Below, one piece after another: positions 8,795 to 47,100 of a stretch of 64,000 nucleotides of DNA. The DNA is from Gekko japonicus (lineage: Eukaryota). Each line of letters opens with the position of its first letter. Within the stretch, counting starts at the first letter, position 1. Below the pieces are notes generated by a model. That model was not told where the DNA came from, did no database searches, and saw only the letters and a list, made by a program, of their open reading frames with translations. The stretch lies in assembly GCF_001447785.1 (NCBI RefSeq), contig NW_015160245.1:396032-460031 (forward strand). Direction: 5' to 3'. The position numbers and the translations under genes are program-made.

Positions 8795-9435
8795 CAAGGA
8801 GCGGGACCCGCAATACTCGCAGGGGGGGTGAGGGAGCTCCACACTTATCGGGCAGAGGAGGAAGCAGGAGTAGGAGGTAAGTTCCCCCCGTCCCGCCAGT
8901 TCCCCCCTCTCCTCCACCCCCAGCTTGATCTCACCCCCCTTGGCTCTGAAGCGAGGCCCGGNNNNNNNNNNNNNNNNNNNNNNNNNNNNNNNNNNNNNNN
9001 NNNNNNNNNNNNNNNNNNNNNNNNNNNNNNNNNNNNNNNNNNNNNNNNNNNNNCACTGATCTCTTCTCCCCCTGGCTCCGAAGTGAGGCCCGCGGCTTGC
9101 AGCCACCGGGCCTCACCAGTCTTCCACCCCCGACTCCGAAGCGAGGCCCGGCAGCTGCAAGCCTCGGGCCTCGCTGGTCTCTTCCCCCCTATTCCGAAGC
9201 GCCGGCAGCGGCGAGGCAGTTTGCAGAGTGTTCCCTGCACATGCGCAGGGGACGCTCTGTTACTTTTGGGGGGATTTAAGTATCCCCCCGATATTTTTTT
9301 CAGGTTTTCAGATTTTTGTGCACACCTGGGGACTGCCCCAAGTGACCACGAAAATCTCCCTTCCCCCCAGGTGCCCCCAATGCGTGGATTTAGGTATCCG
9401 CACGCAAGGGGGCAACTTCAGTATTAGTATATAGA
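8795..9435 (-). mobile_element. Probable non-autonomous Helitron
   Basis: Minus strand: A|TCTATATACTAATA start, subterminal hairpin cctgcgagtattgcggg, and CTTG|T end (CTAG-like). No TSD; internal tandem repeats span an N-gap. Confidence 0.6.
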
Positions 9436-13931: not shown

Positions 13932-15617
13932 CCCCTGACCCAGCTTCAGGCACCCAAGTCCCAGGGCCGGGCTAATCCCAACGAATGCCACCCGCCCTGC
14001 CCGGGGCCGAGGCCTGCCAAGGCCCACAGCCACGTCTCCCACCCCACCAGAGTGAGTTCTGCCTGGAGCCCCCAGGAGTCCTCTTGCCTGTGGGGGCGGG
14101 GGGGGGGGGGAAACCCACTGGCCCAGGGGCTGCATGTGGAAAGCCTGTGCTCGCCACTCTCTGCACATGGGTGCCACCAAGTGATAAGACACTGCCAGGC
14201 AGGAAGGAGAGCGTGGCACCATCTGCCTTTGGCACACCAGCTCGGCTGGACCAGGGCAGTGGAGAAAGAAAGTGCCCGTCCCAGCTGTCTGCCTACAAAG
14301 GCCTGCCTGTGGCCACCGCTGAGATCATGTCCCCGGTGACAGGCGAGGAATCCGGTGGAAACACGGTGGCTGCCGCCCCACCACAGCCACAGGACAGAGG
14401 GAGTAGCTCCCAGCTGCCAGTTACGCTGCCCTCGCAGGAAGGCCGGCTTGCTCTTTGCCAAGGAACAGTCCTCCCGCTGGGTCTGGCAGGCGCAAAGCGA
14501 AGGCTAGCCAGGGAGGGGGGAGTACGGAGGGGAGGGGGGAAGCCCTTTGCTCTGCTGCCTTCCGCGCTCGGCCCCAGCTTGGGTGGCTGGAGGGGTTCCT
14601 TCCCTCCTCCCTTTCCACCGCCAGAGCCCCCCTCCTTCGGAAGGACAGAGAGAGCCACAGATACCAGATGTGTTTCCACAGCAGCCTCCAAGAGCCGCCC
14701 CGGCACTCGCCCTTTCTCAGGCTGCTGCGCTGAGGTCTCGGGGACACAGCTGGGCGGGCTGAGCTGGGGGGGGCGGGGCTGGGCTCCCCGAGGAAGCCTC
14801 AACCCACAGCCGGGGCCCAGGGCCCACCAGCCGCCTGCTGCCCTCAACTTCCCTTCGGCACAGGCAGGCTCGGCCTTTGTCAGGGGAAGGCCCCTGCGCT
14901 GGCTGCAGCTGTCAGGAAGCAGCTCTGACACCCTGACCGGGGTGGGGGTGGGGGAAGGACATGCTGCCTGCAGCCCAGCAGTCCCCCCTCCCCCTCCCAT
15001 CTCTGTGGCTGCTAGGCCAGCCTCCCCCCTCCCAAGGAGCCCCAAAGTCGAGCTGGGCTGCAGTTTGGAGGGAGGGGGGTCACTCCCCACCCATGCTCAG
15101 AATGGAGTCGTTTGCCTGGCTAGCCTAAAACGGGCAGGGCCGAAACCGTTTGTTTCCCTGCAGTCCCCCCACACAAGGCCCCTGCTCCTGGCCACAGGCT
15201 GGAAGGACACTCAGCCCAGCTGGGGTCGGGGCCTTCGTTCTGAAACCCACCCGGGGAGAGAGCAGAGCAGAGGAAGGCACCCCCTCCTGGTCAGCTTGGC
15301 CTGCAGAGTCACTAAGCTGAACTCTCGCTGGCTGGCTGGCACTGGCCTCAAAAACTTCCCACAGAAACCAGAGATGGTGCGCTGCAGGCAGACCGACAGA
15401 GCTGGCCCTGGGGCTCTCTGAGCATGCCACGCCCACTGCCCCGATCCACCTGCCCTCGGCTGCAGGCCACCACAGACTCCGCGCCAGATGCCCCGCCCAG
15501 GACGCTCTGAGGTTCCAGGCACGCCTCTGGCCCAAGGGAGGATGTGCCCCTTTCACGCCCCCGGCCAGTAGGCCGGTCCCCAAAGTTGCAGCCTCCCCCC
15601 GTCAAGCATCTCCTTAC

Positions 15618-16531
15618 CTTGGGAGAGGCGGGTGGGGCGAGTCACGGCCAGGCCATCAATGGCGCAAGGGTTGCCACAGGGGTGCAGGGTGAGAGTCCCG
15701 TGCGCGTTCTCAATGAAGCAGTGCTGGGGGGCCACGCCAGCCCCTTGCAGCACGACGTCCCCGGTAGCCGAGCCCAGCACGGTCCTGCCTACAAAAAGAG
15801 ACGGTGAGCGACTCGGCGGGGCTGGGGGCTGCCTCCCTCTGCTCTGCCAATACGGGGCCGGCAGGGCGATGGGGATGGAGCCTGGGTGCGCCAAAGCACC
15901 GAGGGGTACAGCCACGAGGACTCTGGCAGACGATGGCAGCCTGTCCCCAAGGGCCCCCGTGCCTCCCTGCTTACCCTCCTCCAGCGGCAGCAGGGTGATG
16001 GCGGTGCTGAGGCGCCCGCTGCCCAGGCTGACCAGGTGGGGCTTCTCGGTCTGCACCTGCAAGCCCTTCCCGGCCTCGGTCAGGTCCACGATCTTGCTCT
16101 GGAGGACAGGCAGAGAGAGAGGACATGTCACAGGCAGGCAGGGAGCTCCCGAGCAGCTCAGTCTAATAGGATCACGGGGCAAGACAATTAACCTCCCCGG
16201 TGGGGGGGGGGGATTTCTGGCCAATCCCTTTAACTGGGCAATCAGAGGAGTTGGGGGGGGGAGGGACCAAGGAGGTGCGGCACCGCAGGGCTCTGGGAGG
16301 AGGATTCCAGGGCAGGACAGAGGCCCTCCGGGGGGTGGCCCCCAAACCTGGGAGCACCTCTGCTCGGCAAAGGCAAGCTGGGCCTTTTCTGGCCTGACCC
16401 CTTCCTAGGCTCCGTGAGGAGGGCTAAAATGAGCTGTACCATGACCACACCCACCCCCCCGGCAGACTCACTTGGACGGGTGCCTGTGCTCGGAAGGTGG
16501 GCGCCACCCGACTGCGGCTACAGGTCTCCAT
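15618..16531 (-). CDS. PHLDB1: Pleckstrin homology-like domain family B member 1 (LL5-alpha), first three coding exons (FHA-like N-terminal region); the rest of the gene is not seen
   Basis: Exons 16531-16472 (gccATGG, METCSRSRVAPTFRAQAPVQ|gtgagt), 16098-15975 (SKIVDLTEAGKGLQVQTEKPHLVSLGSGRLSTAITLLPLEE) and 15788-15618 (GRTVLGSATGDVVLQG...HCFIENAHGTLTLHPCGNPCAIDGL...RLSQ). All GT-AG with consistent phases. Matches the recalled PHLDB1 N-terminus and synteny next to ARCN1. Confidence 0.93.
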
Positions 16532-19500
16532 GGCCACGGCCCTCTGTCGGGGCTATCGAGCTCTCTTCCCGGTTTCCTGTTGTTTTCCTTTTGGAAGCCA
16601 CTTTAGGCAGGTCCCCGGAGTGGCGGCACGGACATCTTCTAAACAAGCAGATGCAGAAGAATAAATCAAAACGGGCTCTCCGGACTGCCTGATCCAGCAG
16701 AGCCAACGGAGCTCCTTCTCTGAGCAGCACCCAGATGGCCTTTCTGGACCGCTCCCCCCCCCCCCGCTGGCTGTTGAGCCAAACAACTGGAAAACTGTGC
16801 AGGAGTGGGATCGCTTATCCAGCCGTGAGCCTCGCCTCTCCTCTCCTCCCCACCCCCTCTCCCCGGCCTTCTCGCCAGACACAGCACCAGGGGCCTGTGT
16901 GCGCCATGGTCACTCTGGAAGCACATGAGGCCCTGAAGGTGCCATTTTGCGTTGCCAGAGCTTTGAGAATGACACCAGTGTGACTCTGACCTTCAGCACA
17001 CAGGGCCGCATTTCAGCCTGCCCCCCCACTCTCCCCAGGGCATGCAGAACATATGATCCCTCCCCCCCCCCGTTCAGAAGCAAGCCCCCCGTGAGCCCCA
17101 CGACTGCCCTGCCCTGGCCCCCCCCCCCCCGGGCACGCACGCTGAGCAGACAGAGGCCCCGGCTACCACCAAAGCCCCTCGAGACCCCCGCCCATTCTGG
17201 GGAGGACGGGGCAAGACAGGCACCCCTCAGCTGGCCTGGGTGTGGGCAGGCCCCCCGGGGAGAGGAGCAGACGCCCCCCCCCCAGCATTATCTTGGGCTT
17301 CTGGCCTCCCGCAGCCGGCTCTCTGGGGCCGTGGGGCAAAAGAGCTCCCTTGGGGGGGGGCACCCTGTGGCTTCTCCCCCTGCCCCAGCCCGTCCCTCTG
17401 CAAGTGCTGACAAGTGCTCTGTTCGGGGAGCCAGACAAAGAGCCTTTCTTCTCCCTTCTTGGGGCTGCCAGAGAATGCGGCCTTTGTGCGGCTACTGGGT
17501 GAGGCCGGGCAGCTCAGGCCACAGGGTCCGGCCCCGCTCCAGCCCCCCCCCGCTTGGCCGGACTGATCTGCTTGGGCACTTTTAACTGGCTTCCCCTCAG
17601 CTCAGCACAGACGCAAAGCGGCTTATGATGCACAGGGAGGCCCCAAGAGAAAGTCACCAACTGTACACAACATTTCCACGCAGAACCCTCAGAGCGAGAA
17701 GGGGGGCAGAGCCCAGAGCCGGAGGTAAGAGCTCTGCCCTCGATGGAAGCGGGAAGTGTCTGTCCCCCCCCCCCAAGAGGCAGGAAGGCCAGAAGGTCCA
17801 GCCCAAAGCAGGAAGGCAAGGGGGAGTGGGGGGGCTGGTCGCCTGCCCTTTGCCCCTCCTGGGCCTGGCCCTCCCCAGGCAGCCTGGGAAAGATGGAGGC
17901 GGGAGCCCGCCAGGCCAGGCCATGAGACGAAGGAACAAATAGGGAAGGACTGACTGGAGCAGGGCTGAGTCAACCCACCCACGGCTTGGCTCTCCTTAAG
18001 CGAGGGCGACTCATGTCTTCCTTGGCCTCCCCTTCCAAGACACAAGACTCTGCCGAGCCCAAGAGGGGCAAGCGGAACAGGGCCAAGAAACTGGCACCCA
18101 CACGGTGCCCTAACGGTCCAGAAGACGCCAGGTGGCAGGAGGCCGGAGGCCTCCCCCGGGGCATGCTTTCTCTTGGGCCCCTCCAAGGCAGCAGCTCCTG
18201 CAGGCCCCCCCCCAGGCACAGGCGGGGGGGGGGCTCTGACTGAGAATTCCCAGCTGCAATTGCCCCAGGCTCGCTGGGAGAGCAAACACGCCTTTCAGCC
18301 CCCCAACACAGAGACCGGACCCGGGAGGAGGCAATGCCCAGCCCGGGGGGGGGGGCAATTTGCCAGGATGACACATGGGCAAGCGTGCCCACACCCACTT
18401 TGCCCCAACTGCTGAGATCAGGCCCCCCCTGAGGTCCCTTTTGTGCCCCTTCTTCAGGTGTCCTCACACCCAAAGGGAGCTGGCTGAAGTCCCCAGAAGG
18501 AAGAAGCCCGCCCCCCCCCAGCCACTGGCAGGCCGGTTTCTTTACTACGTTGAGTTGTAGCACTAGACAACATTTCCCTAAGTCAAGTGCTGATGAGGAG
18601 GAGAGCTCCTAAGAGGCCTGAAACAGATGCTGAGAACTCACAACTGCCACAGCTGCCTACTCGAAAAGCCCTCCGAAGGTGGTGGTGGTGGGGGTCTGCA
18701 GACGGCAGGAAAGGACAGCCACCCCCTCCCCCCAGATCCCAGCAGAGGCTTGCAAATACCCACCTCCAGTTCTGCCACCGCTGCCCTGAGGCGGCAGTTT
18801 CCGCCGAGGAGGAGGGGTTAACAATGGCAGCCCCACTCTCTGCGTTCACCACCCCGGGGCCTGGCAGCAAGTTTCCCTCCTCTGCTGGGCTGGCCTCTAA
18901 GCTGCCTTGCCACCTCTCCCTGCAGTCCAACAGCTGCACCCACCAGTGCCCCCCCTTCCTTAACGGGGGGGGGAGGGAGAAAGTGCTCATGTCTCCAGCC
19001 GTTTCATTGTGGCAATCCGCTCCGCAAGTTCCTCAAGCGCACAGAAGCCTGCGAAGGGTGCTGCTGCACCCAGCAGGAGAGGGAAGCATCCCATCTTTCA
19101 GCCAGGGGTGCCGGCCCTGCACTGGGTGTGGGTGTCGGAGGGCGAGATGGCTCCTGCTCTGGGATTCTCAGATTCCCCGACGTGAGGGGAGCGAACCTTA
19201 AGAGAGGAGAAGCCGGAAGGGCCCTCAAGACCCCCCCCCCCGTCCAAGCCCCTGCCCCACGCAGGAGGGCCCCGAAAGCTTCCCTNNNNNNNNNNNNNNN
19301 NNNNNNNNNNNNNNNNNNNNNNNNNNNNNNNNNNNNNNNNNNNNNNNNNNNNNNNNNNNNNNNNNNNNNNNNNNNNNNNNNNNNNNNNNNNNNNNNNNNN
19401 NNNNNNNNNNNNNNNNNNNNNNNNNNNNNNNNNNNNNNNNNNNNNNNNNNNNNNNNNNNNNNNNNNNNNNNNNNNNNNNNNNNNNNNNNNNNNNNNNNNN

Positions 19501-19823
19501 NNNNNNNNNNNNNNNNNNNNNNNNNNNNNNNNNNNNNNNNNNNNNNNNNNNNNNNNNNNNNNNNNNNNNNNNNNNNNNNNNNNNNNNNNNNNNNNNNNNN
19601 NNNNNNNNNNNNNNNNNNNNNNNNNNNNNNNNNNNNNNNNNNNNNNNNNNNNNNNNNNNNNNNNNNNNNNNNNNNNNNNNNNNNNNNNNNNNNNNNNNNN
19701 NNNNNNNNNNNNNNNNNNNNNNNNNNNNNNNNNNNNNNNNNNNNNNNNNNNNNNNNNNNNNNNNNNNNNNNNNNNNNNNNNNNNNNNNNNNNNNNNNNNN
19801 NNNNNNNNNNNNNNNNNNNNNNN

Positions 19824-23485: not shown

Positions 23486-26400
23486 CTACAGGATCTCGTA
23501 CTTGTCCACGAGGAAGGTGGTCTCGGTGGAGAACCTCACGGGGGTGTTCCCATCTACCTGGGTCACTTTGGTAACCTGCAGAGAGGAGAAGGGCGCAGGG
23601 TGAGCTGGGATGAAGCACAACGCCAGAACAGCTCACGCGGGCACACTGTGGGCCAAGACCACGGGGCACCATTTGCTGACGTGGAGGAGACTCCCGCCAG
23701 TGCCAGAGAGCTGGTCTCGAGAAGTGCCACGAGATGGGGGTGAAGGCCCAATGCAAGCTTTGTGCCCTGCTACGTGTCCTGACAACCCAAAGCAGGTCGA
23801 GATGGCGCCCTCCACTCAGCACGGGCCTTGCCAGCCCAAAGGCCTCTGTCTGACTTTTGCCACTTTCAAATAAAAGAATTCCCAGGCACAGGAACCAGTT
23901 GCCAAGACCTTGAGGTTACTGCTCCTGAGCTAGATAGAAAAACGGTCTGACTCCAGACAAGACTGCTCCTGGCTTCCCGGAACCCCCCCCCCCAACTTCC
24001 AAAATGGAGAGAACGGCTGCCCGGGGGGTGGGGTGGGGGGGTGGGCAGGCCTCCGGCCTCACCTGGATGCTGCAGTAGTTCTTCTTGGAGAGGAAGGAGA
24101 GGCGCACAGGGAAGAAGTCGTTGGGCTGCCCAGCGATGCTGAACTCCAGGCTGCCGCTCTTGTTTTTGGCATCAATCACAGGCAGACACCACTCGAGGAG
24201 GTTCCTCCGGCTATCGTGGCGATACTCGCCGTCGATTTCTCTGATCACTGGCGTGCCCACGCCCGACCTGCATCAGAGGCCACAGGTGACTCCCAGATCA
24301 CACCCCCCGCCCCGTGCATCGGGAAGCGCATATGGCCCGGAGCCAGGGGTCAGCGGGCTGGGGAGGGGGAGCAGACTGGCACCCTAGTGGGGGCCCAAGA
24401 GGTCCACAAGACTCACGGCAAAGGAATCGCGATCACCACGTCGTTCAGCTCCAGGCTGTCCTCCTGCAGCTCATACTCGATGTTGACATCGCAGCCACTG
24501 CCGCTCTCAGACGGCCAGCAGTTAACTAAGGCAAAAAGACACAGGCACGCGAGTGACTCACCTGTGACACACTCCAAAAGGGAGACTCTGCCCAACTCCC
24601 CCCCCTCTCTATCTGCTCAAGGAGATCCCCCGGGCAGCCCCAGCGGCACTCACTCGTCAACGGAATGAAGGACTCTTCCGTGGTCTGCAGCCGCCACTTC
24701 TCAGGGTTCTTCAAGCCAATCAAGGACTCGGTAGTAAAAAGCTTCTTGTCAACATTGGGGTGAGTCTGAAAGGAAGAACGAAAGGGAAGCCATCCGTCCC
24801 AGAAGCCCCAGAGCAAGGAGTCAAAAGCCTTCTGTCATCTCTGGGCTTCCCATAATCAGCTCGATGGCTTCTGGACACCAAGCAGGGGCCACCAAGCCAG
24901 GCCCAGGAGACACCTCCTCTGGGAGCCGCCGGCAACCACCACCAACCTGGTGCTCTAACCACTTTTGTAAGACGAGAGTAAGGCTACAAAGAGGCACATT
25001 CTTCCCTCCTCTCTGGTGCACACGAGCACTAACCAATCCACCCGCCGGCCAAAGACCATGGATCTAACTCTGGCTCCGCTCCTGGCAACCTGGGGGCAAA
25101 CAGCCAGGGCCCTGTGCTCGGGACGGGTGTCAAGCCGTTGCCTGCAGCGGAAACCATAGTGGCTCTCAGTGCCTCCACGCTGGCAACAGCCAGGCCAGTC
25201 ATACCTGCAGCTGCACACCCTTCTTGTCCTCATTCTCCACATGGATCCGAATGCGGGCAAACTTTTCATCCTGGATCCGCAGCATAATCATGCCGTGTAG
25301 CTCCATGTTCTGCAGTCCCCCATCACGGCCACAAGTCAGTGAGATTTTCTCCTCGATTTTCATGTGCACACTGGAGAAAGGACAGCAACACAAGGGCTGT
25401 GCATCTCTGTTCTCTACGAAGGCAAGCTCCACCAACCTGGAAGGCACCAGTCAACCCCAGGGGACTCCTGGCTACTGCCCTGGGGCACTATCAACTAGTA
25501 CCTACACTTACAATCCTCATCATGGCATCAGTTTGTCTGCAATCCAGCTTTCTCCACAACACAAATCATCTCATTCTAAAAGCCAAGATCTACATACCCA
25601 AACATCGCTCTGCATAGAATTAGGCAAAAATCAGAAACAATCCCTGCTGGAAGACACGTGCTTAGGGAAGAAAAACAAAAACTGACAGATGGGGCTGGAG
25701 GATGCCCCCACCGTCGCCCAGAAGCACACAACAGACTTCCCAAAGGCACAACCGTCTTCCACTTACCTCTCCGTATTTACGGGCGGAGCAAACACTGTGG
25801 CTGCTTCAGAGGATCGCTTGCCTACTGAAGAGGTTATTATGTTTTCTCCTTCTGATTTTAACTTGTCCACAAAGTTATCAACTTCTTTCCCTTTGGCGCC
25901 CAGCTTGAGTGCCTTGTTTGATCCAGACGGCCTAACAAAGAAGTGTGAGGCTCTTAGTTTAACAATCACATCAGTCACCCACAGGGCTCCTCTGAGCAGA
26001 GCACACAAGCAGAGCCCCTGAGGCCCCTCCGGCAGAGGCAGAGCCCCAAGGCGTTTGCATCTGAAGAGATCGGCTAACACAAACCGCAGCTCAGAAACAG
26101 ATGTTCCCTTCACTGCCCACACAACACACCCCAGTTTGACACCTCCAGGTATACCCCCCCGCCGAAGAAAAAAACTACCCAGACGCGCACGACAACAAAG
26201 CTGACCTGGTTGGTGTAGGAGTCACTTTTGGTTTCTCTGTCTCAACTATGGTGTCTGTGATCATGGCAGCCGTGGTGCCTCCTGACAGAGCTGTACTCCC
26301 AAAGCCACCGAAGCCAGGCGCTTTCGTGCCCCGTCGCTCGGCATCCCTGCGTGCCTGTTGCAACTCCTTGGCTTTTCGACGCATTTCAGCCTTAGCCTCA

Positions 26401-28145
26401 CGTTCTTGTGTCTAAGGAAGAATGGCGTATACTATCAGTTCTTAAAGGTACATGCAGTGCAACAAATTAAGGCCCCTGATCCCCTAACCATGTCGATCCT
26501 CCTGGACCAGAGCAGTGATCCGCGCAGTCCAGCCTGGACGACCAGCACACAGGGGATCAGAGACCCTACAGAGGAAAGCGCCGGTGTAAATGGAACACAG
26601 CAGACTTGGGAAGGTCTTGTGTTCACCTCACGGACAGCTCTGAAGACCTTCTCCTCGTGCGAATCCATCTCTGTGAAGGTGCGGATCTGGGCCAGGTTGA
26701 CGTTCTCCCGGTACCCGAGGGCAACTATCTCATCAAAGGCAAAGATTAGATCAAAGCAGTGATCAGAAATCTCATTCTCTTCCAATGCTCTGCAGTATTC
26801 AGGTATCTGAATGGAATCAAGAAATGAAACACTTCTTGAGAAAATGAAAGAGCGAACGTTTATATCTTCCTTTCTTTTTACTCCACCTTTTCCCACAGTG
26901 AAATTAATGACATCTCAGAAAACATAATGTTTAACAGGTATACTAGTGTAATCCACAGATTGGACAACCGAAATGGCCTCTGCGTGAAGCTGCCTTTGCA
27001 AACGCATGGGAACCTTCAGGTAATACCCAACTGTTTCAACGGGAGCCGGCACAGAGTGTCTAGCTATGTGTCATCGAAGGCTTTCACAGCCGGAGTTCAT
27101 TAGTTGCTGTAGATTTTCCAAGCTGGGTGGCCGTGGTCTTGGCATTGTAGGACCTGACGTTTATTTTATTTTATTTATTTAACTTTCGACTTGCTACCCC
27201 GCTCAAACCCCCCACAGGGGGTCTCTGAGCGGCTCTACAGTTAACTGTTATCCCTTACCTAAGGCCACATATATATGCAGGGGTGGGGACTGTCCTAACA
27301 GCACCCAGTGGAGGGACGTTCTGGGACAGCTTGTTGCTTGTCGGCACGGCTTCTACTGACTTCTTTCCTCCGGTGGTGGTACAGTAACTGTGACTGGCAT
27401 CATCAGAGGTATAATTCAGAAATTGGGAGTACTCTCTATGCCCTGACACAGAGAGTACTCCCGCTTTCTGAGTTACACCTTTGAGGACACCAGTCACAGT
27501 TGCTGGCAAAACGTCAGGTCCTACAGTGCCACACAGCCACTAATGCCTAGCGATGGTCTGGGTTGGCCCAGGTTCAGAGGCCCCCTCTGCCGCGGAAGGC
27601 TGCTGAGTAACCTTAGACCAGCTACTCTCCCCACCTAAACGACTTCATTGAGCTAGCGTGACCATAGAGTGCTGTAAGCACTCAGCAAGAGGAGAAGCAG
27701 GGGGTAGCCGTCTGGATAAGCCTGGAGGAGCCAGCTGCTGGGCACATATGAACGGGAGTGTTGGAGAGAAGAGCTTGGGAGTGCCATGCAGGGAACCCAG
27801 GAGGATGGATGGATGGATGGATGGACGGCGCCCGCCCCCCCCCCACCGCCCCGGGCCCCCGCGGGGGGGGGGCTGGCTCACCACCCGTGAGAAGAGGCGG
27901 AGGGTCTCGAGGTCCTCGAGGATGTTGCTGTTCTTGGTGGTGATGAGGACCATGTAGAGCTTCTCCATGGGCTGGTAGACGTAGCGGACGCTCTCCGTCT
28001 CCACGAAGGTGTGCTGCTTGCCCGTGTTCATCAGCTTGGGGAAGGCGGCCAGGAGCCCCTCGATGCGCGTCCGCGTCATCTCCACGAACTGCCGCGAGAC
28101 GATGGCCTTGCCCGCCTTCGTGCACACGGCGGCCGCCAGCAGCAC
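23486..28145 (-). CDS. ARCN1: Coatomer subunit delta (archain 1), coding exons 2-10; the ATG-only exon 1 is probably in the gap 28220-28805
   Basis: Exons 28145-27882, 26806-26627, 26411-26206, 25931-25767, 25370-25205, 24765-24654, 24525-24417, 24267-24063 and 23575-23486. All GT-AG and in frame, from [30 protein letters not shown] to [16 protein letters not shown]. Exon 7 lacks 12 codons (see findings). Confidence 0.97.
27068..27540. mobile_element. Penelope-like remnant with inverted repeats in ARCN1 intron 2
   Basis: Starts gtcatcgaaggctttcacagccgg. ggcattgtaggacctgacgttt (27141-27162) is inverted at about 27509-27530. Confidence 0.6.
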
Positions 28146-28805
28146 CTGCCCCCGGGGGAGGGAGGGAGGGAGAGTCAGGCGGCCACACCGCCAGCCCCGG
28201 CCCGGCCCCCTCCCTCCCGNNNNNNNNNNNNNNNNNNNNNNNNNNNNNNNNNNNNNNNNNNNNNNNNNNNNNNNNNNNNNNNNNNNNNNNNNNNNNNNNN
28301 NNNNNNNNNNNNNNNNNNNNNNNNNNNNNNNNNNNNNNNNNNNNNNNNNNNNNNNNNNNNNNNNNNNNNNNNNNNNNNNNNNNNNNNNNNNNNNNNNNNN
28401 NNNNNNNNNNNNNNNNNNNNNNNNNNNNNNNNNNNNNNNNNNNNNNNNNNNNNNNNNNNNNNNNNNNNNNNNNNNNNNNNNNNNNNNNNNNNNNNNNNNN
28501 NNNNNNNNNNNNNNNNNNNNNNNNNNNNNNNNNNNNNNNNNNNNNNNNNNNNNNNNNNNNNNNNNNNNNNNNNNNNNNNNNNNNNNNNNNNNNNNNNNNN
28601 NNNNNNNNNNNNNNNNNNNNNNNNNNNNNNNNNNNNNNNNNNNNNNNNNNNNNNNNNNNNNNNNNNNNNNNNNNNNNNNNNNNNNNNNNNNNNNNNNNNN
28701 NNNNNNNNNNNNNNNNNNNNNNNNNNNNNNNNNNNNNNNNNNNNNNNNNNNNNNNNNNNNNNNNNNNNNNNNNNNNNNNNNNNNNNNNNNNNNNNNNNNN
28801 NNNNN

Positions 28806-28893: not shown

Positions 28894-31800
28894 GGGAGGG
28901 GAGTTCGACGAGCCAGAGGAGGGCGAAGGCGGCGGCAAGCGGGAGAAGGCGTCGGCGTCGTCGGCCGAGGAGCGGCGTCGGAAGGTGGTGGGGGGCGTCG
29001 TCCTGGGCCCCGGCCCGCCCCTGCCCCCTCCGGCCCCCCTGGGCGCCCCGGCGCGGGGCGGGGGGGAGAAGAAGGCGGCGGCGGCGGCGTCCCGGGTGGC
29101 CTCCCAGCGCCGCTTCAGCGAGAACGACGTGGAGGACGAGGACGACGACGAGGACTCTTCCGAGACCGACTCGGAGGACGACGACGAGGACGAGGAGCAC
29201 GGGGCCCCCCTCGAAGGGTCGGTCGGCCCTCCGTCCGTGGGCCGCTGGGGGGGGGCAGTCTAAGCAGCAGCAGCAGCTGCCCCGGGGAAGGGGAGGGGGG
29301 GGGCGGCGGAGAAGAAGAAGAGGAGGCCGGATTTATTCCCTTTCCCCTTCACTCACAGAGCCGGTGACAGTCTCTTCTCCCTCCCCACGACAGACACCCT
29401 GTGAGGGAGGTGGGGCTGAGAGAGCTCTTGAGAGAACTTGTGACTGACCCAAGGTCACACCAGCAGCTGCATATGGAGTGGGGAATCAAACGCAGCTCTT
29501 CCAGATCAGATTCCGCGCTCTTAACCACTACGCCAAACTGGCTCTCAAACTGGCACTTAACCACTATACCAAACTGACCAGGGGAGGGTGCCCCTTGCTG
29601 GTTTCCCCATGGGGGTATCCAGGAGCCCAGCAGGAGAGCAGCCCATAGCACAGCCAGGGCCTGGAAACACCCAAGGCATGGAGCCTCTCTCCCGCCCAGT
29701 TGGGAGGCAGCCTCTCTGGCCCTAAACCTGTGGGGCAGCATGGCACTTCCCCCCTTATCCTAGTGGCTGTGCCCCCCCCCCCGAGGTCCTTTGGCTCCTG
29801 CCCATCTCATGGCTCATCCTTTCTTCAGGGCCTACAACCCGGCGGAGTACGACTGCCTGCCCGTCTCCCTGGAGATCAAAGACCTCTTCCAGTACATCCG
29901 GAGGTGAGTGGGGGGGGGGCCTTGGCCCTCCCCGTGGGCAGACCTGTCTCTTCAGAGCTCTCTCGGCTGACACTGTCTGCTTCTCAGGTATTCTCCACAG
30001 ATGATCGACCTTGAGCACAAACTGAGGCCTTTCATTCCAGACTTCATCCCAGCAGTAGGAGACATTGATGCCTTCTTGAAGGTACCAAGAGGGCTCTGAC
30101 TCCCCACAACATTTGTGGGCAAGGCCATTCGTCTGTTTCCCATGGTGGCAGAGACCACTGCCTGTTTGCAGGAGGGGGCACTTGGGGGGAGGGTTTGCCT
30201 GGTGCTGGCAGAGGAGCGTTTGTCTTGCAGCCAACTGATGGCTTAGTTGTTCTGCAGAATCTTTTCAGGAGACCTCTGTTCCCTGGTCTGCTTCACAATC
30301 CATTTGCTCAGTGATGAACAGCTCCTCCCAGAAAAGATTCTCTTGAGCACAGTTCTGCCCCAGAAGGGAGTCAGCGCTGCTGTCTTGGTTGGTGGGTTGT
30401 TTGTTGCAGGTTCCCCGCCCGGATGGGAAGCCAGATAACCTGGGTTTGTTGGTGCTTGATGAGCCATCGACTAAGCAGTCAGACCCTACGGTGCTCTCCC
30501 TCTGGTTGACGGAAAACTCCAAGCAGCACAACGTGGCCGTGAGTGAGGCGGGCGGTGATACAAACGGGGCGGCAGAGCTCTTTGGGCCGAGGAGCGAGAG
30601 CGGCTGGCTGAAAGTGGCTTTGTGTTCTAGCAGCAGATAAAAGTGAAGAGCTTGGAGAACGCCGAGAAGAATCCCAAGGCCATCGACAGCTGGGTCGAGA
30701 GCATCAGCGAGCTCCATCGCTGCAAGCCTCCCGCCTCCGTCCACTATGCCAGGTAGGGGCAAAGGCAGCTCTGGCTCCCCGCAGAGGCCCCTCCTCACTC
30801 AGGGCCCTTCCAAGGAGGCCTGGCCCTGGCAGCTGGGCCATCTCAGGAGGAGGCGGAGAGATTGGATGGATACCCCCCCCCCGCCGTCCTTCACTCCCCG
30901 AAGGAGGAGTCTCAGAGCGGCTGACAAACTCCTTTCCCTTTCGCTCCCCACAACAGACACCCTGTGAGGTAGGCGAGGCTGAGAGAGCTCTGGCAGGAAC
31001 GGCTCTTTCTTTCAAGGACAGCTCTTGTCAGAACTACGGCTTGCCCAAGGTCATCCAGCAGGTGCAAGTGGAGGAGTGGGGAATCAAACCCGGCTCTCCC
31101 AGATTAGAGTCCTCCGCGCACTTAGCCCTGGACACCGAACTGGCTCTCAGGCTGCCCTTTCTTCTCACCCCTTGCAGGCCCATGCCTGACATAGACTCGC
31201 TGATGCAAGAGTGGTCCCCTGAGTTTGAAGAACTGCTCGGGAAGGTAGGCGGGCCTGCTAGCAAGAGGATGGCAGCTTTCCTGGTCTTAGAGCTTGAGCA
31301 GCCCCCCTCCCTCCGTCCCCCCCCCGAGCCCCTGTCACTGGGAGCTGGGAGGAGGAAGCTGCCGCAGATTACCAGCCAGCTGCCGCTTCCCTTTGTCCTG
31401 TTCAGGTGAGCCTTCCAACAGCGGACATCAGCTGTAGCCTTGCTGAATACACGGACATGATCTGTGGTGAGTCCCTTGTGGCCCTCCTAGAGTGGAGCGG
31501 CTCCAGAGCAGCAGGGGACACATACCTGCGTGTGCCTGGCTTCCTGGGGTGGGGGTCTGCTTGAACACCAGGTATCGCCTGGCCTAGGTAACTCCTCAGG
31601 GTGGCTTTGCTCTCCCCAGCTATTCTGGACATTCCTGTCTACAAGAGCCGCATCCAGTCCTTGCACACCCTGTTCTCGCTCTACTCTGAATTCAAGAACT
31701 CCCAGGTATGAAGCCTGCCCTGGATCCTGCATTGCGGGGAGGAGGCGTTCTGGCTGCGGAGGAAAGAGGAGAGGGAAAACGTTCTGCTGCCCAGGAGCTT

Positions 31801-36540: not shown

Positions 36541-37561
36541 CTGCAAGGCAAAGACACCAGGCCCGGCGTTGGCCATCCGGAGAGCCGCCCTTCCCCCCCC
36601 CCCCCAGCCCCCCCCCCCCCCCACCCCCCCTCCACGCGCAGGGANNNNNNNNNNNNNNNNNNNNNNNNNNNNNNNNNNNNNNNNNNNNNNNNNNNNNNNN
36701 NNNNNNNNNNNNNNNNNNNNNNNNNNNNNNNNNNNNNNNNNNNNNNNNNNNNNNNNNNNNNNNNNNNNNNNNNNNNNNNNNNNNNNNNNNNNNNNNNNNN
36801 NNNNNNNNNNNNNNNNNNNNNNNNNNNNNNNNNNNNNNNNNNNNNNNNNNNNNNNNNNNNNNNNNNNNNNNNNNNNNNNNNNNNNNNNNNNNNNNNNNNN
36901 NNNNNNNNNNNNNNNNNNNNNNNNNNNNNNNNNNNNNNNNNNNNNNNNNNNNNNNNNNNNNNNNNNNNNNNNNNNNNNNNNNNNNNNNNNNNNNNNNNNN
37001 NNNNNNNNNNNNNNNNNNNNNNNNNNNNNNNNNNNNNNNNNNNNNNNNNNNNNNNNNNNNNNNNNNNNNNNNNNNNNNNNNNNNNNNNNNNNNNNNNNNN
37101 NNNNNNNNNNNNNNNNNNNNNNNNNNNNNNNNNNNNNNNNNNNNNNNNNNNNNNNNNNNNNNNNNNNNNNNNNNNNNNNNNNNNNNNNNNNNNNNNNNNN
37201 NNNNNNNNNNNNNNNNNNNNNNNNNNNNNNNNNNNNNNNNNNNNNNNNNNNNNNNNNNNNNNNNNNNNNNNNNNNNNNNNNNNNNNNNNNNNNNNNNNNN
37301 NNNNNNNNNNNNNNNNNNNNNNNNNNNNNNNNNNNNNNNNNNNNNNNNNNNNNNNNNNNNNNNNNNNNNNNNNNNNNNNNNNNNNNNNNNNNNNNNNNNN
37401 NNNNNNNNNNNNNNNNNNNNNNNNNNNNNNNNNNNNNNNNNNNNNNNNNNNNNNNNGGGGGGAAAGGAGAGGGGGGGGAGGCGTTTTTGGGGGGGGGGGG
37501 GGGGCAGCCATCCGGCCATCCGGCCGGCCATCCGGCGAGAGTCCCGGGCGGTCGGTGCGCT

Positions 37562-44140: not shown

Positions 44141-47100
44141 TCAGTTGAGGAACCGGCGGCATTTCTTGGCGCCACAGTTGCAGGGCAGCTTGTTGCTGGC
44201 ATCCTCGATGGGGAACTTGTAGTCGTAGGTGAGCTCCTCGCCACGGTAGATCTTGCGCACGGCAAAGATGACAATGTGCTTCTGCCCATCGATGTTGATG
44301 ACCCGGGAATAGCAGTTGGGCTCGCACGAGTGGTTGATGAAGCGGGCGGCATTTCCGTGCATGGTGGCGTCCACCACCTCTGAGTCGTCAATGCGGAACA
44401 TGTAGCAGCCGATGCCCTGGGTCAGGAGCAGAGAGAGGGTGGGTTACGCCACTGCTGGGCACGGCCAACCTACCAACACGCAAGAGCCGCTGCAGTGCAG
44501 ACAGCTCTCCGGGAGGGCTGGCTCCTCCTCCGCAAACAGGCCTTCTCTAGGGCTCCCACAGCAGCTGTGGCNNNNNNNNNNNNNNNNNNNNNNNNNNNNN
44601 NNNNNNNNNNNNNNNNNNNNNNNNNNNNNNCAACCAACCTCCTGATTGCCATTGACCTGAGGCCCAAAAGCAATGCCGGGTTACAGGCAGGGCTACCAAA
44701 AAACTGACCAGCTGCCCTGCGTGACCCCTAGAAGTCCCCCATCCCCCGACTCGGGCACCTTTGCCAGGCACAGCCAGGAAGCCCGTCCGGGCCAACAGAC
44801 CGTGTGGCTGCCCATAACCTCACTCTGAGACGGTCAGGATGCCAGCTGGTAGGTCCCAGCCCCCCCGACCCTGCCCCCTGCCAGAGAGGCTCCTGGGCTG
44901 GAGCTCACCTTGCCGTCGTAGTACTTCTCGCGCTTGTCCGTCAGGATGGAGCGGATCACGTTGCCAGCGTATTCGATGACCATCTCTCCTGCATCGATGT
45001 TCCTTTTGCAGAACAAGCCCCGGCCGTGGATGGGGGACCTAGCGAGAGAGAGAGAGAGAGAGAGAACATGCACGGGATACTAGGGGTGTGCAAAAAAAAA
45101 AAATTCGGAAAAATTCAGATTCGGGTTTACTAGACCCGAATTTTTTCGGGAAACCCGAAAAAACCCGAATATCTATATCGGTAAAGCATAGATATCCGAA
45201 TTTTTTCGGGAAACCCGAAAAATTCGGGTCCATTATAACCAATGGGGCCATTGAAGTCAATGGCAAAAATCCTCTTGAAACTTTGTGGGGGGCTGGGGGG
45301 GAGGGGGTTTGGGGTAGAGGCTCCAAACTTGGAGCGTGCTTACTGGAACCTCTCCCCAACATACCCACCAAGTTTCAAGACGATTGGACCAGGGGGTACA
45401 ATTTTATGGGCCCCCAAACAGGTTGCCCCCAGATCAGCTTGCTGCAGTTTATTCGCGGTTTTGCGCCGAAATTCGGCGGCAATTCGGCAACATTGTATCC
45501 TATGGACCTTGGAGTGGGTAAGCTCGAAACTTGGAGGGTGGTTACTAGAACCTCTCCCCTACATACCCACCAAGTTTCATGAAGATTGGACCAGGGGGTC
45601 CAATTCTATGGGCCCCCAAACAGGTTGCCCCCACCCCATTGTTCTCTATGGTGGGAACAAAATTACTTTTTTTCCCACCATAGAGAATAATGGAGGGATT
45701 ACTTTTTTTCCCACCATAGAGAACAATGGAGGGATGGGGGCAAACTGTTTTGGACAGCATGTTTGCAAACTTTTGCCAGACCAGCCAGCCCCAGCCACAC
45801 TGCAGCAGAGAAGAACCATACAAGTGCCCCCCCACAACCTGTGCCGCCAAACTGGGTGCCCAAAACCCCAAAACCAACACAACTTGGCTCAAACCAAAGA
45901 ATCTCTCTACAGCAGCAGCACTGAGGTAGCATGTCTGTGCATTACCAATGCCAGACAGACAGGCCCAGCAGCAGGACCAGAGCAATCTGCCCCCCCCACA
46001 ACCTGTGCCAAGGTGCAACCAATCAGTGCCCAGACCAACTTGGTGCAAACCAGAGAATTTCTGCAGACAGCAGCAGCAGCCCACAGAATGAGGGAGCAAG
46101 CAAGTGCATGCCAGCCAGGCCCCAGCATTGCAACAGAAGAACAAGAGCAATCTGCCACCTGTGCCAGGCCAGCCAGGTTGCCATGCCAGTCAGTGCCCCA
46201 AAACCAGAACTAGGTCAAACCAGAGAATCTCTCCAGACTGCACTGGAGCGGCAGCACACAGGCTGAGGGAGCATGTATGTGCATCGCCAATGCCAATGCC
46301 AGCCAGCCAGGCCCAGCAGCAGAACCAGTCCACCTCAAGTGTGCCAATGTGCCAGTGCCCAAAAAACCCCAAAAGCAAAACAATCTCTCCCCTCTGCAGT
46401 GGCAGTGGCCTACATATGGGAGCATGTTTGCTAATGGCAGCCATGCCCAGCTGCAAAACCAGAGCAATCTCAACCCCCCCTCCCAACAACCTCTGTGCCA
46501 GTCACCCAACTTACTGGACTCAGTCCAAACCTGAGGATTTCTGCAGTATAAATGAAGGGGGGGGGCAGGCAGGGCCTGTGCAAGTGACGTGAGCAATCAC
46601 TAGGGGTGTGCGTGCGAATCCCCATTCAGCGCACCTGAAGAGAGGCAAAGGGAGGCCAAAGGAACCCAAATTACACCAAATCAGAGTGGCCGCCAACTCT
46701 CCAGGGGGTGCCCAAAGATTGAGATATGATGATTCCCAGGTTGGGGAATCATCCAGAGGGGTCCCACCATATGCTACCTCTAGGAAGATGTTGGCTTGTG
46801 ATTGTGAATCCAGTGAGTGGGTGGCAGCGACTACGGAAGTAAGATAGCCCCACCCCCACCAGGCAGGGGCAGGCAGGCAAAAACTTCCCGAGCCACACAG
46901 TGGCTGGCTTGTGTGGGTCCCCCCGCCCCGTTCCCAGCAGTGCAGGAGAGTCACACAGAGACGTCTCCCTTACAACCCCAGAGGCCCCTCCTCCATGCCC
47001 AGAAGCGCTTGTTGCCTAGCCTGCTCTGGAAATCCAAAGGTGGGCTGCCCAGAGGCTGAAAAGGAGTTGGGAACTTGGGAGTCGGGCTTGGTCCCCTGTT

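Follow-up and report, generated by a model that had tools for sequence, protein, structure and literature searches.

The ARCN1 gene of Gekko japonicus, which encodes the coatomer subunit delta-COP, is assembled with an exon 7 that lacks 36 nt, but the organism itself most likely has no such gap. With a probability of roughly 88%, the gap corresponds to an assembly join across a 5-nt repeat and not to a real loss. The species itself has a full-length, transcribed and spliced ARCN1 exon 7. Positions given below are those of the window, that is the whole stretch of 64,000 nt that was analysed (assembly GCF_001447785.1, contig NW_015160245.1).

Nine ARCN1 coding exons with AG and GT ends were located on the reverse strand from 28145 to 23486 and were matched exon by exon to orthologues. 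Exon 2 (27882-28145), in which the longin domain starts, exon 3 (26627-26806), exon 4 (26206-26411), exon 5 (25767-25931), exon 9 (24063-24267) and the coding part of exon 10 with its stop codon (23486-23575) were delimited by match to orthologues and by exon ends. Exon 6 (25205-25370), in which the mu-homology domain starts, also matches orthologues and is reached by RNA loose ends at 24768 that continue into it, while exon 8 (24417-24525) is bounded by an RNA joint at 24525/24654. Exon 7 (24654-24765) has 112 nt as assembled and 148 nt when the 36 nt found in reads are included. An N gap 5' of exon 2 (28220-28805) likely contains exon 1 and the start codon. The located coding exons total 1497 nt including the stop, which is 12 codons short of the 511-aa protein. 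RNA reads connect exons 6-7, 7-8 and 8-9, and the gene is an expressed, intron-containing gene and not a retrocopy. A domain search with P0001 (XP_015269205.1), the public predicted protein, gave a match to PF00928 (E 8.6e-46) and, in this N-truncated sequence, a match to PF01217 (E 1.3e-4) at 22.4 bits, just below the cut-off of 22.5; exon 2 of the window encodes the N-terminal part that is absent from P0001. Overall, this is an ordinary orthologue of delta-COP, with an N-terminal longin domain and a C-terminal mu-homology domain.

Searching the assembly (G000) by DNA and by protein returned one ARCN1 match each, corresponding to the window itself (1 of 1 candidate scored). An intact second copy or retrocopy was looked for in these searches and none was found, with the proviso that a copy on a tiny unplaced piece could escape them. 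Upstream, on the forward strand, exons of an IFT46 domain (30347-31406) are arranged head to head with those of ARCN1; downstream, an exon encoding an FHA domain (15556-16404, reverse strand) probably belongs to PHLDB1. IFT46-ARCN1-PHLDB1 is the usual vertebrate gene order, and ARCN1 was found as a single copy in this neighbourhood. The assembly is divided into 191,500 contigs for a total of 2.49 Gb, and the window itself is interrupted by five N gaps with 2087 N (8962-9053, 19286-19823, 28220-28805, 36645-37456 and 44572-44630). The two that are nearest to ARCN1 lie within GC-rich sequence or simple repeats, which points to a patchy short-read assembly at this locus.

As assembled, exon 7 is preceded by AG, followed by GT and in frame with its neighbours, and it lacks 12 residues when compared to the solved chains 5a1u_H and 4o8q_A, corresponding to residues 352-363 of the 511-aa 5a1u_H. 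The boundary between a Lys and a Trp codon falls at 24697/24696, and the breakpoint can be placed only to within a 5-nt direct repeat (24696-24700, reverse strand) made of the last base of a Glu codon, the Lys codon and the first base of the next codon; this repeat occurs once in the assembly and twice, 31 nt apart, in reads. No other gap was found in exons 2-6 and 8-10 by comparison with three orthologues. The initial annotation, drawn from the sequence alone, had described a 112-nt exon with intact splice sites and frame, an in-frame deletion of 12 residues, a junction at 24697/24696 and full-length exons elsewhere; each of these points is borne out, the junction being refined to the repeat.

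Four of the 24 listed runs (X1, X21, X22 and X23; four samples from three studies) were aligned to positions 24380-25020; X19, X2, X7, X8 and 16 others fell outside the analysis and X20 (a metagenome, share 0.06) was ignored. These runs carry the same species label and the source sample of the assembly is unmarked among them. For the DNA contig run X1, one contig of 3089 nt with a depth of 88.5 covers all 641 bases. It aligns as two segments (24380-24700 and 24696-25020) separated by 31 letters and otherwise agrees with the window throughout. The joint from 24700 to 24696 goes back by 5, the repeat word being found on both sides of the insert, and the assembly is therefore short by 31 + 5 = 36 nt. 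The same joint and letters were found in raw RNA runs, in 4 reads of X21 (of 56 aligned) and 12 of X23 (of 169). Further reads were clipped at 24696 (19 in X21, 29 in X23) or at 24700 (4 and 16, respectively), with loose ends that fit the insert. When translated by hand in the exon frame, the 36 nt give the 12 residues found at positions 354-365 of the gecko protein P0052. Reads or transcripts with the 36 nt were what the initial annotation had named in advance as pointing to an assembly error against a real loss, and they occur in X1, X21 and X23.

The raw DNA run X22 is sparse, with 10 reads, no joint listed and two reads crossing the junction. Its depth track could be fitted with an error of 0.0 only if both junction reads were clipped, while three alternatives with read-through gave errors of 0.53, 2.08 and 2.63; this pattern would fit clipping at the junction by two reads, a number below the listing threshold. 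X1 yielded no aligned short-form contig, bearing in mind that contigs drop rare variants, and no short form was listed in any of the four runs in a tally of joints and clips that leaves room for a minority of reads running straight across.

Several sequence differences were recorded along the way. The insert occurs in X23 in two versions (7 versus 5 reads), both full length; they are distinguished by a synonymous change in the third position of a Pro codon, located 7 letters away from one end of the insert. X22 differs from the window at 24592, 24605 and 24645, through two substitutions in an intron and one inserted nucleotide, and three of six X21 reads have a substitution at 24431 in exon 8. 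In exon 9, positions 24242-24240 (reverse strand) form an Arg codon while all three orthologues compared have Gly; this substitution is real since it is also found in the RNA loose ends of both X21 and X23.

Homologues were collected as a set of 137 proteins (the best 120 of 156 relatives and 17 from a cluster look-up), and the distance between two motifs served to score 135 of them, P0119 and P0137 remaining unscored. Among the matches listed, full spacing was found in 134 of the 135 scorable homologues and only P0001 is short; P0119, which begins after the first motif and hence has no score, was seen by inspection to contain the 12 residues. Across the 134 full-length homologues, again among the matches listed, five segment positions out of 12 are invariant. 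The statement of the initial annotation that vertebrate delta-COP has this segment agrees with what 134 of 135 scorable homologues keep. The comparison of squamate ARCN1, which had been proposed as a check, speaks against a lineage loss, the gecko orthologue P0052 and other squamate proteins being full length.

Structure predictions lend slight support to the view that a genuine loss of the segment would harm the protein. In the P0052 model, which matches the folds 4o8q and 5nzu, the missing segment is predicted to include the first five residues of a strand at 361-370. Over this half of the domain, model confidence is 54-83 (with one block at 43) for P0052 residues 271-380 versus 25-47 for P0001 residues 251-340; both are low-confidence models (mean pLDDT 53.6 and 45.4, respectively) built on an alignment of close vertebrate sequences only. 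The delta-COP mu-homology domain is described in three reports as binding di-tryptophan motifs (PMC11441981, PMC6737914, PMC4868844). No contact between the 12-residue segment and a WxW/WxxF peptide was found in a literature search whose scope did not extend to the primary paper. We presume that the last Lys of the missing segment is a di-tryptophan contact residue.

These data fit best with an assembly mis-join, since independent reads (X1, X21 and X23) restore the missing sequence. In this fragmented assembly, two sequence ends would have been joined through the 5-nt repeat, with the drop of 31 nt and one repeat copy, presumably where contigs were joined or a gap was filled, or else through a chimera in the library. 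As 5 bases fall short of what a simple k-mer collapse would need, a join or chimera step is assumed. The frame is kept since 36 is divisible by three, an outcome that a random join gives once in three. A possible trigger for a graph break is the synonymous variant of the insert, which alone leaves the 31-nt loss unexplained. The assembled animal would then have the 36 nt as well and its gene, with these restored, would be an ordinary delta-COP in the COPI coat, with a longin and a mu-homology domain. Should X1 be the source of the assembly, it would show the error outright; should it come from another animal, the deletion is not species-wide. The initial annotation had left the choice between a real lineage- or allele-specific loss and a microhomology collapse between two Lys codons. 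The geometry of the latter holds, with a 5-nt direct repeat including a Lys codon that flanks the missing piece exactly; the lineage-specific loss falls, and a private allele is retained as an unlikely reading.

The unlikely reading is that the assembled animal carried a private heterozygous 36-nt deletion, produced by microhomology-mediated repair or by replication slippage and kept by the assembler. Short direct repeats at a junction also mark real microhomology-mediated deletions and the 5-nt repeat would fit such an event, yet it is common to both readings and separates neither. The protein from such an allele would likely have a misfolded mu-homology domain, the normal allele compensating. 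Recessivity has a precedent in the mouse nur17 mutation, a damaging Ile422Thr change in the mu-homology domain (PMC2873907). Two other reports present this domain as dispensable in yeast (PMC5482573, PMC6737914), which is in keeping with a tolerated allele and also qualifies the earlier description of delta-COP as an essential COPI subunit. Against this, no such allele was seen in the four samples of three studies, and the window flanks are identical to the full-length X1 haplotype over the other bases aligned, X22 differing at three places; there is thus no sign of a separate old haplotype, because the flanks are those of X1. Besides, in people the loss of one ARCN1 allele leads to a dominant disorder (PMC13761915), and join errors in an assembly of 191,500 contigs would be expected to outnumber such alleles.

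It is highly improbable that a tolerated deletion allele segregates in the species at low frequency. Such an allele could have been missed, being rare or in pooled samples, in an analysis that covered 4 of the 24 listed runs and in which contigs drop rare variants, but no short form was listed in the four runs, the segment is kept in 134 of 135 homologues among the matches listed, and half a core strand is predicted to be lost. A fixed lineage-specific loss of 12 delta-COP residues is more improbable still and is refuted by other samples under this species label, whose DNA and spliced RNA include all 36 nt, as well as by P0052 and other squamate proteins, which are full length; this reading fails because X1 is full length, whether it is the assembly source or another animal. 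P0001 has the same gap, but it was rejected as independent support since its sequence matches the window exons and its cluster has no other member. A hidden mini-intron or alternative splicing was also rejected, as spliced RNA contains the 36 nt and the assembled DNA does not.

With the mis-join as the preferred reading, the finding is mainly a caution. A gap that keeps frame and splice sites entered a public predicted protein, P0001, and would pass for a real change of the lineage in comparative studies or scans for selection; the practical gain is one gene model (P0001) to correct. If the deletion were a true private allele, it would represent a modest natural loss-of-function variant and not a new system. 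In that doubtful event, a heterozygous gecko would be a reptile counterpart of the human ARCN1 syndrome alleles. With half a core strand removed from the mu-homology domain, such an animal would likewise provide, though the odds are poor, a natural test of how well a vertebrate copes when one of its two copies of this domain is dead. No prior account of the 36-nt gap in ARCN1 was found among the best-matching literature titles, a search narrower than a full check of print.

When compared to known systems, the gene corresponds to vertebrate delta-COP (mouse 5a1u_H, bovine 4o8q and gecko P0052) exon by exon, by its Pfam domains (PF00928 and PF01217) and by fold match, with 94% identity to gecko P0052; only the assembled sequence differs, in lacking the 12 residues, and the species does not. 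P0001, annotated as PREDICTED coatomer subunit delta of Gekko japonicus, consists of the window exons with the same 12-residue gap, and in addition starts at an internal Met, thereby omitting ca. 25 N-terminal residues, most of them encoded by exon 2 (28145-28080) and the others by exon 1. It repeats the assembly, confirms nothing and should count as a faulty model. In microhomology-mediated deletion, by alternative end joining or replication slippage, a short direct repeat bounds the deleted piece and one copy is left; the difference here is that no deleted form was listed in the runs aligned. In mis-joins at gap-closing sites of short-read drafts, a short stretch is likewise lost at the join and restored by independent reads, and the ARCN1 gap belongs with such draft-genome mis-joins (PMC9575681).
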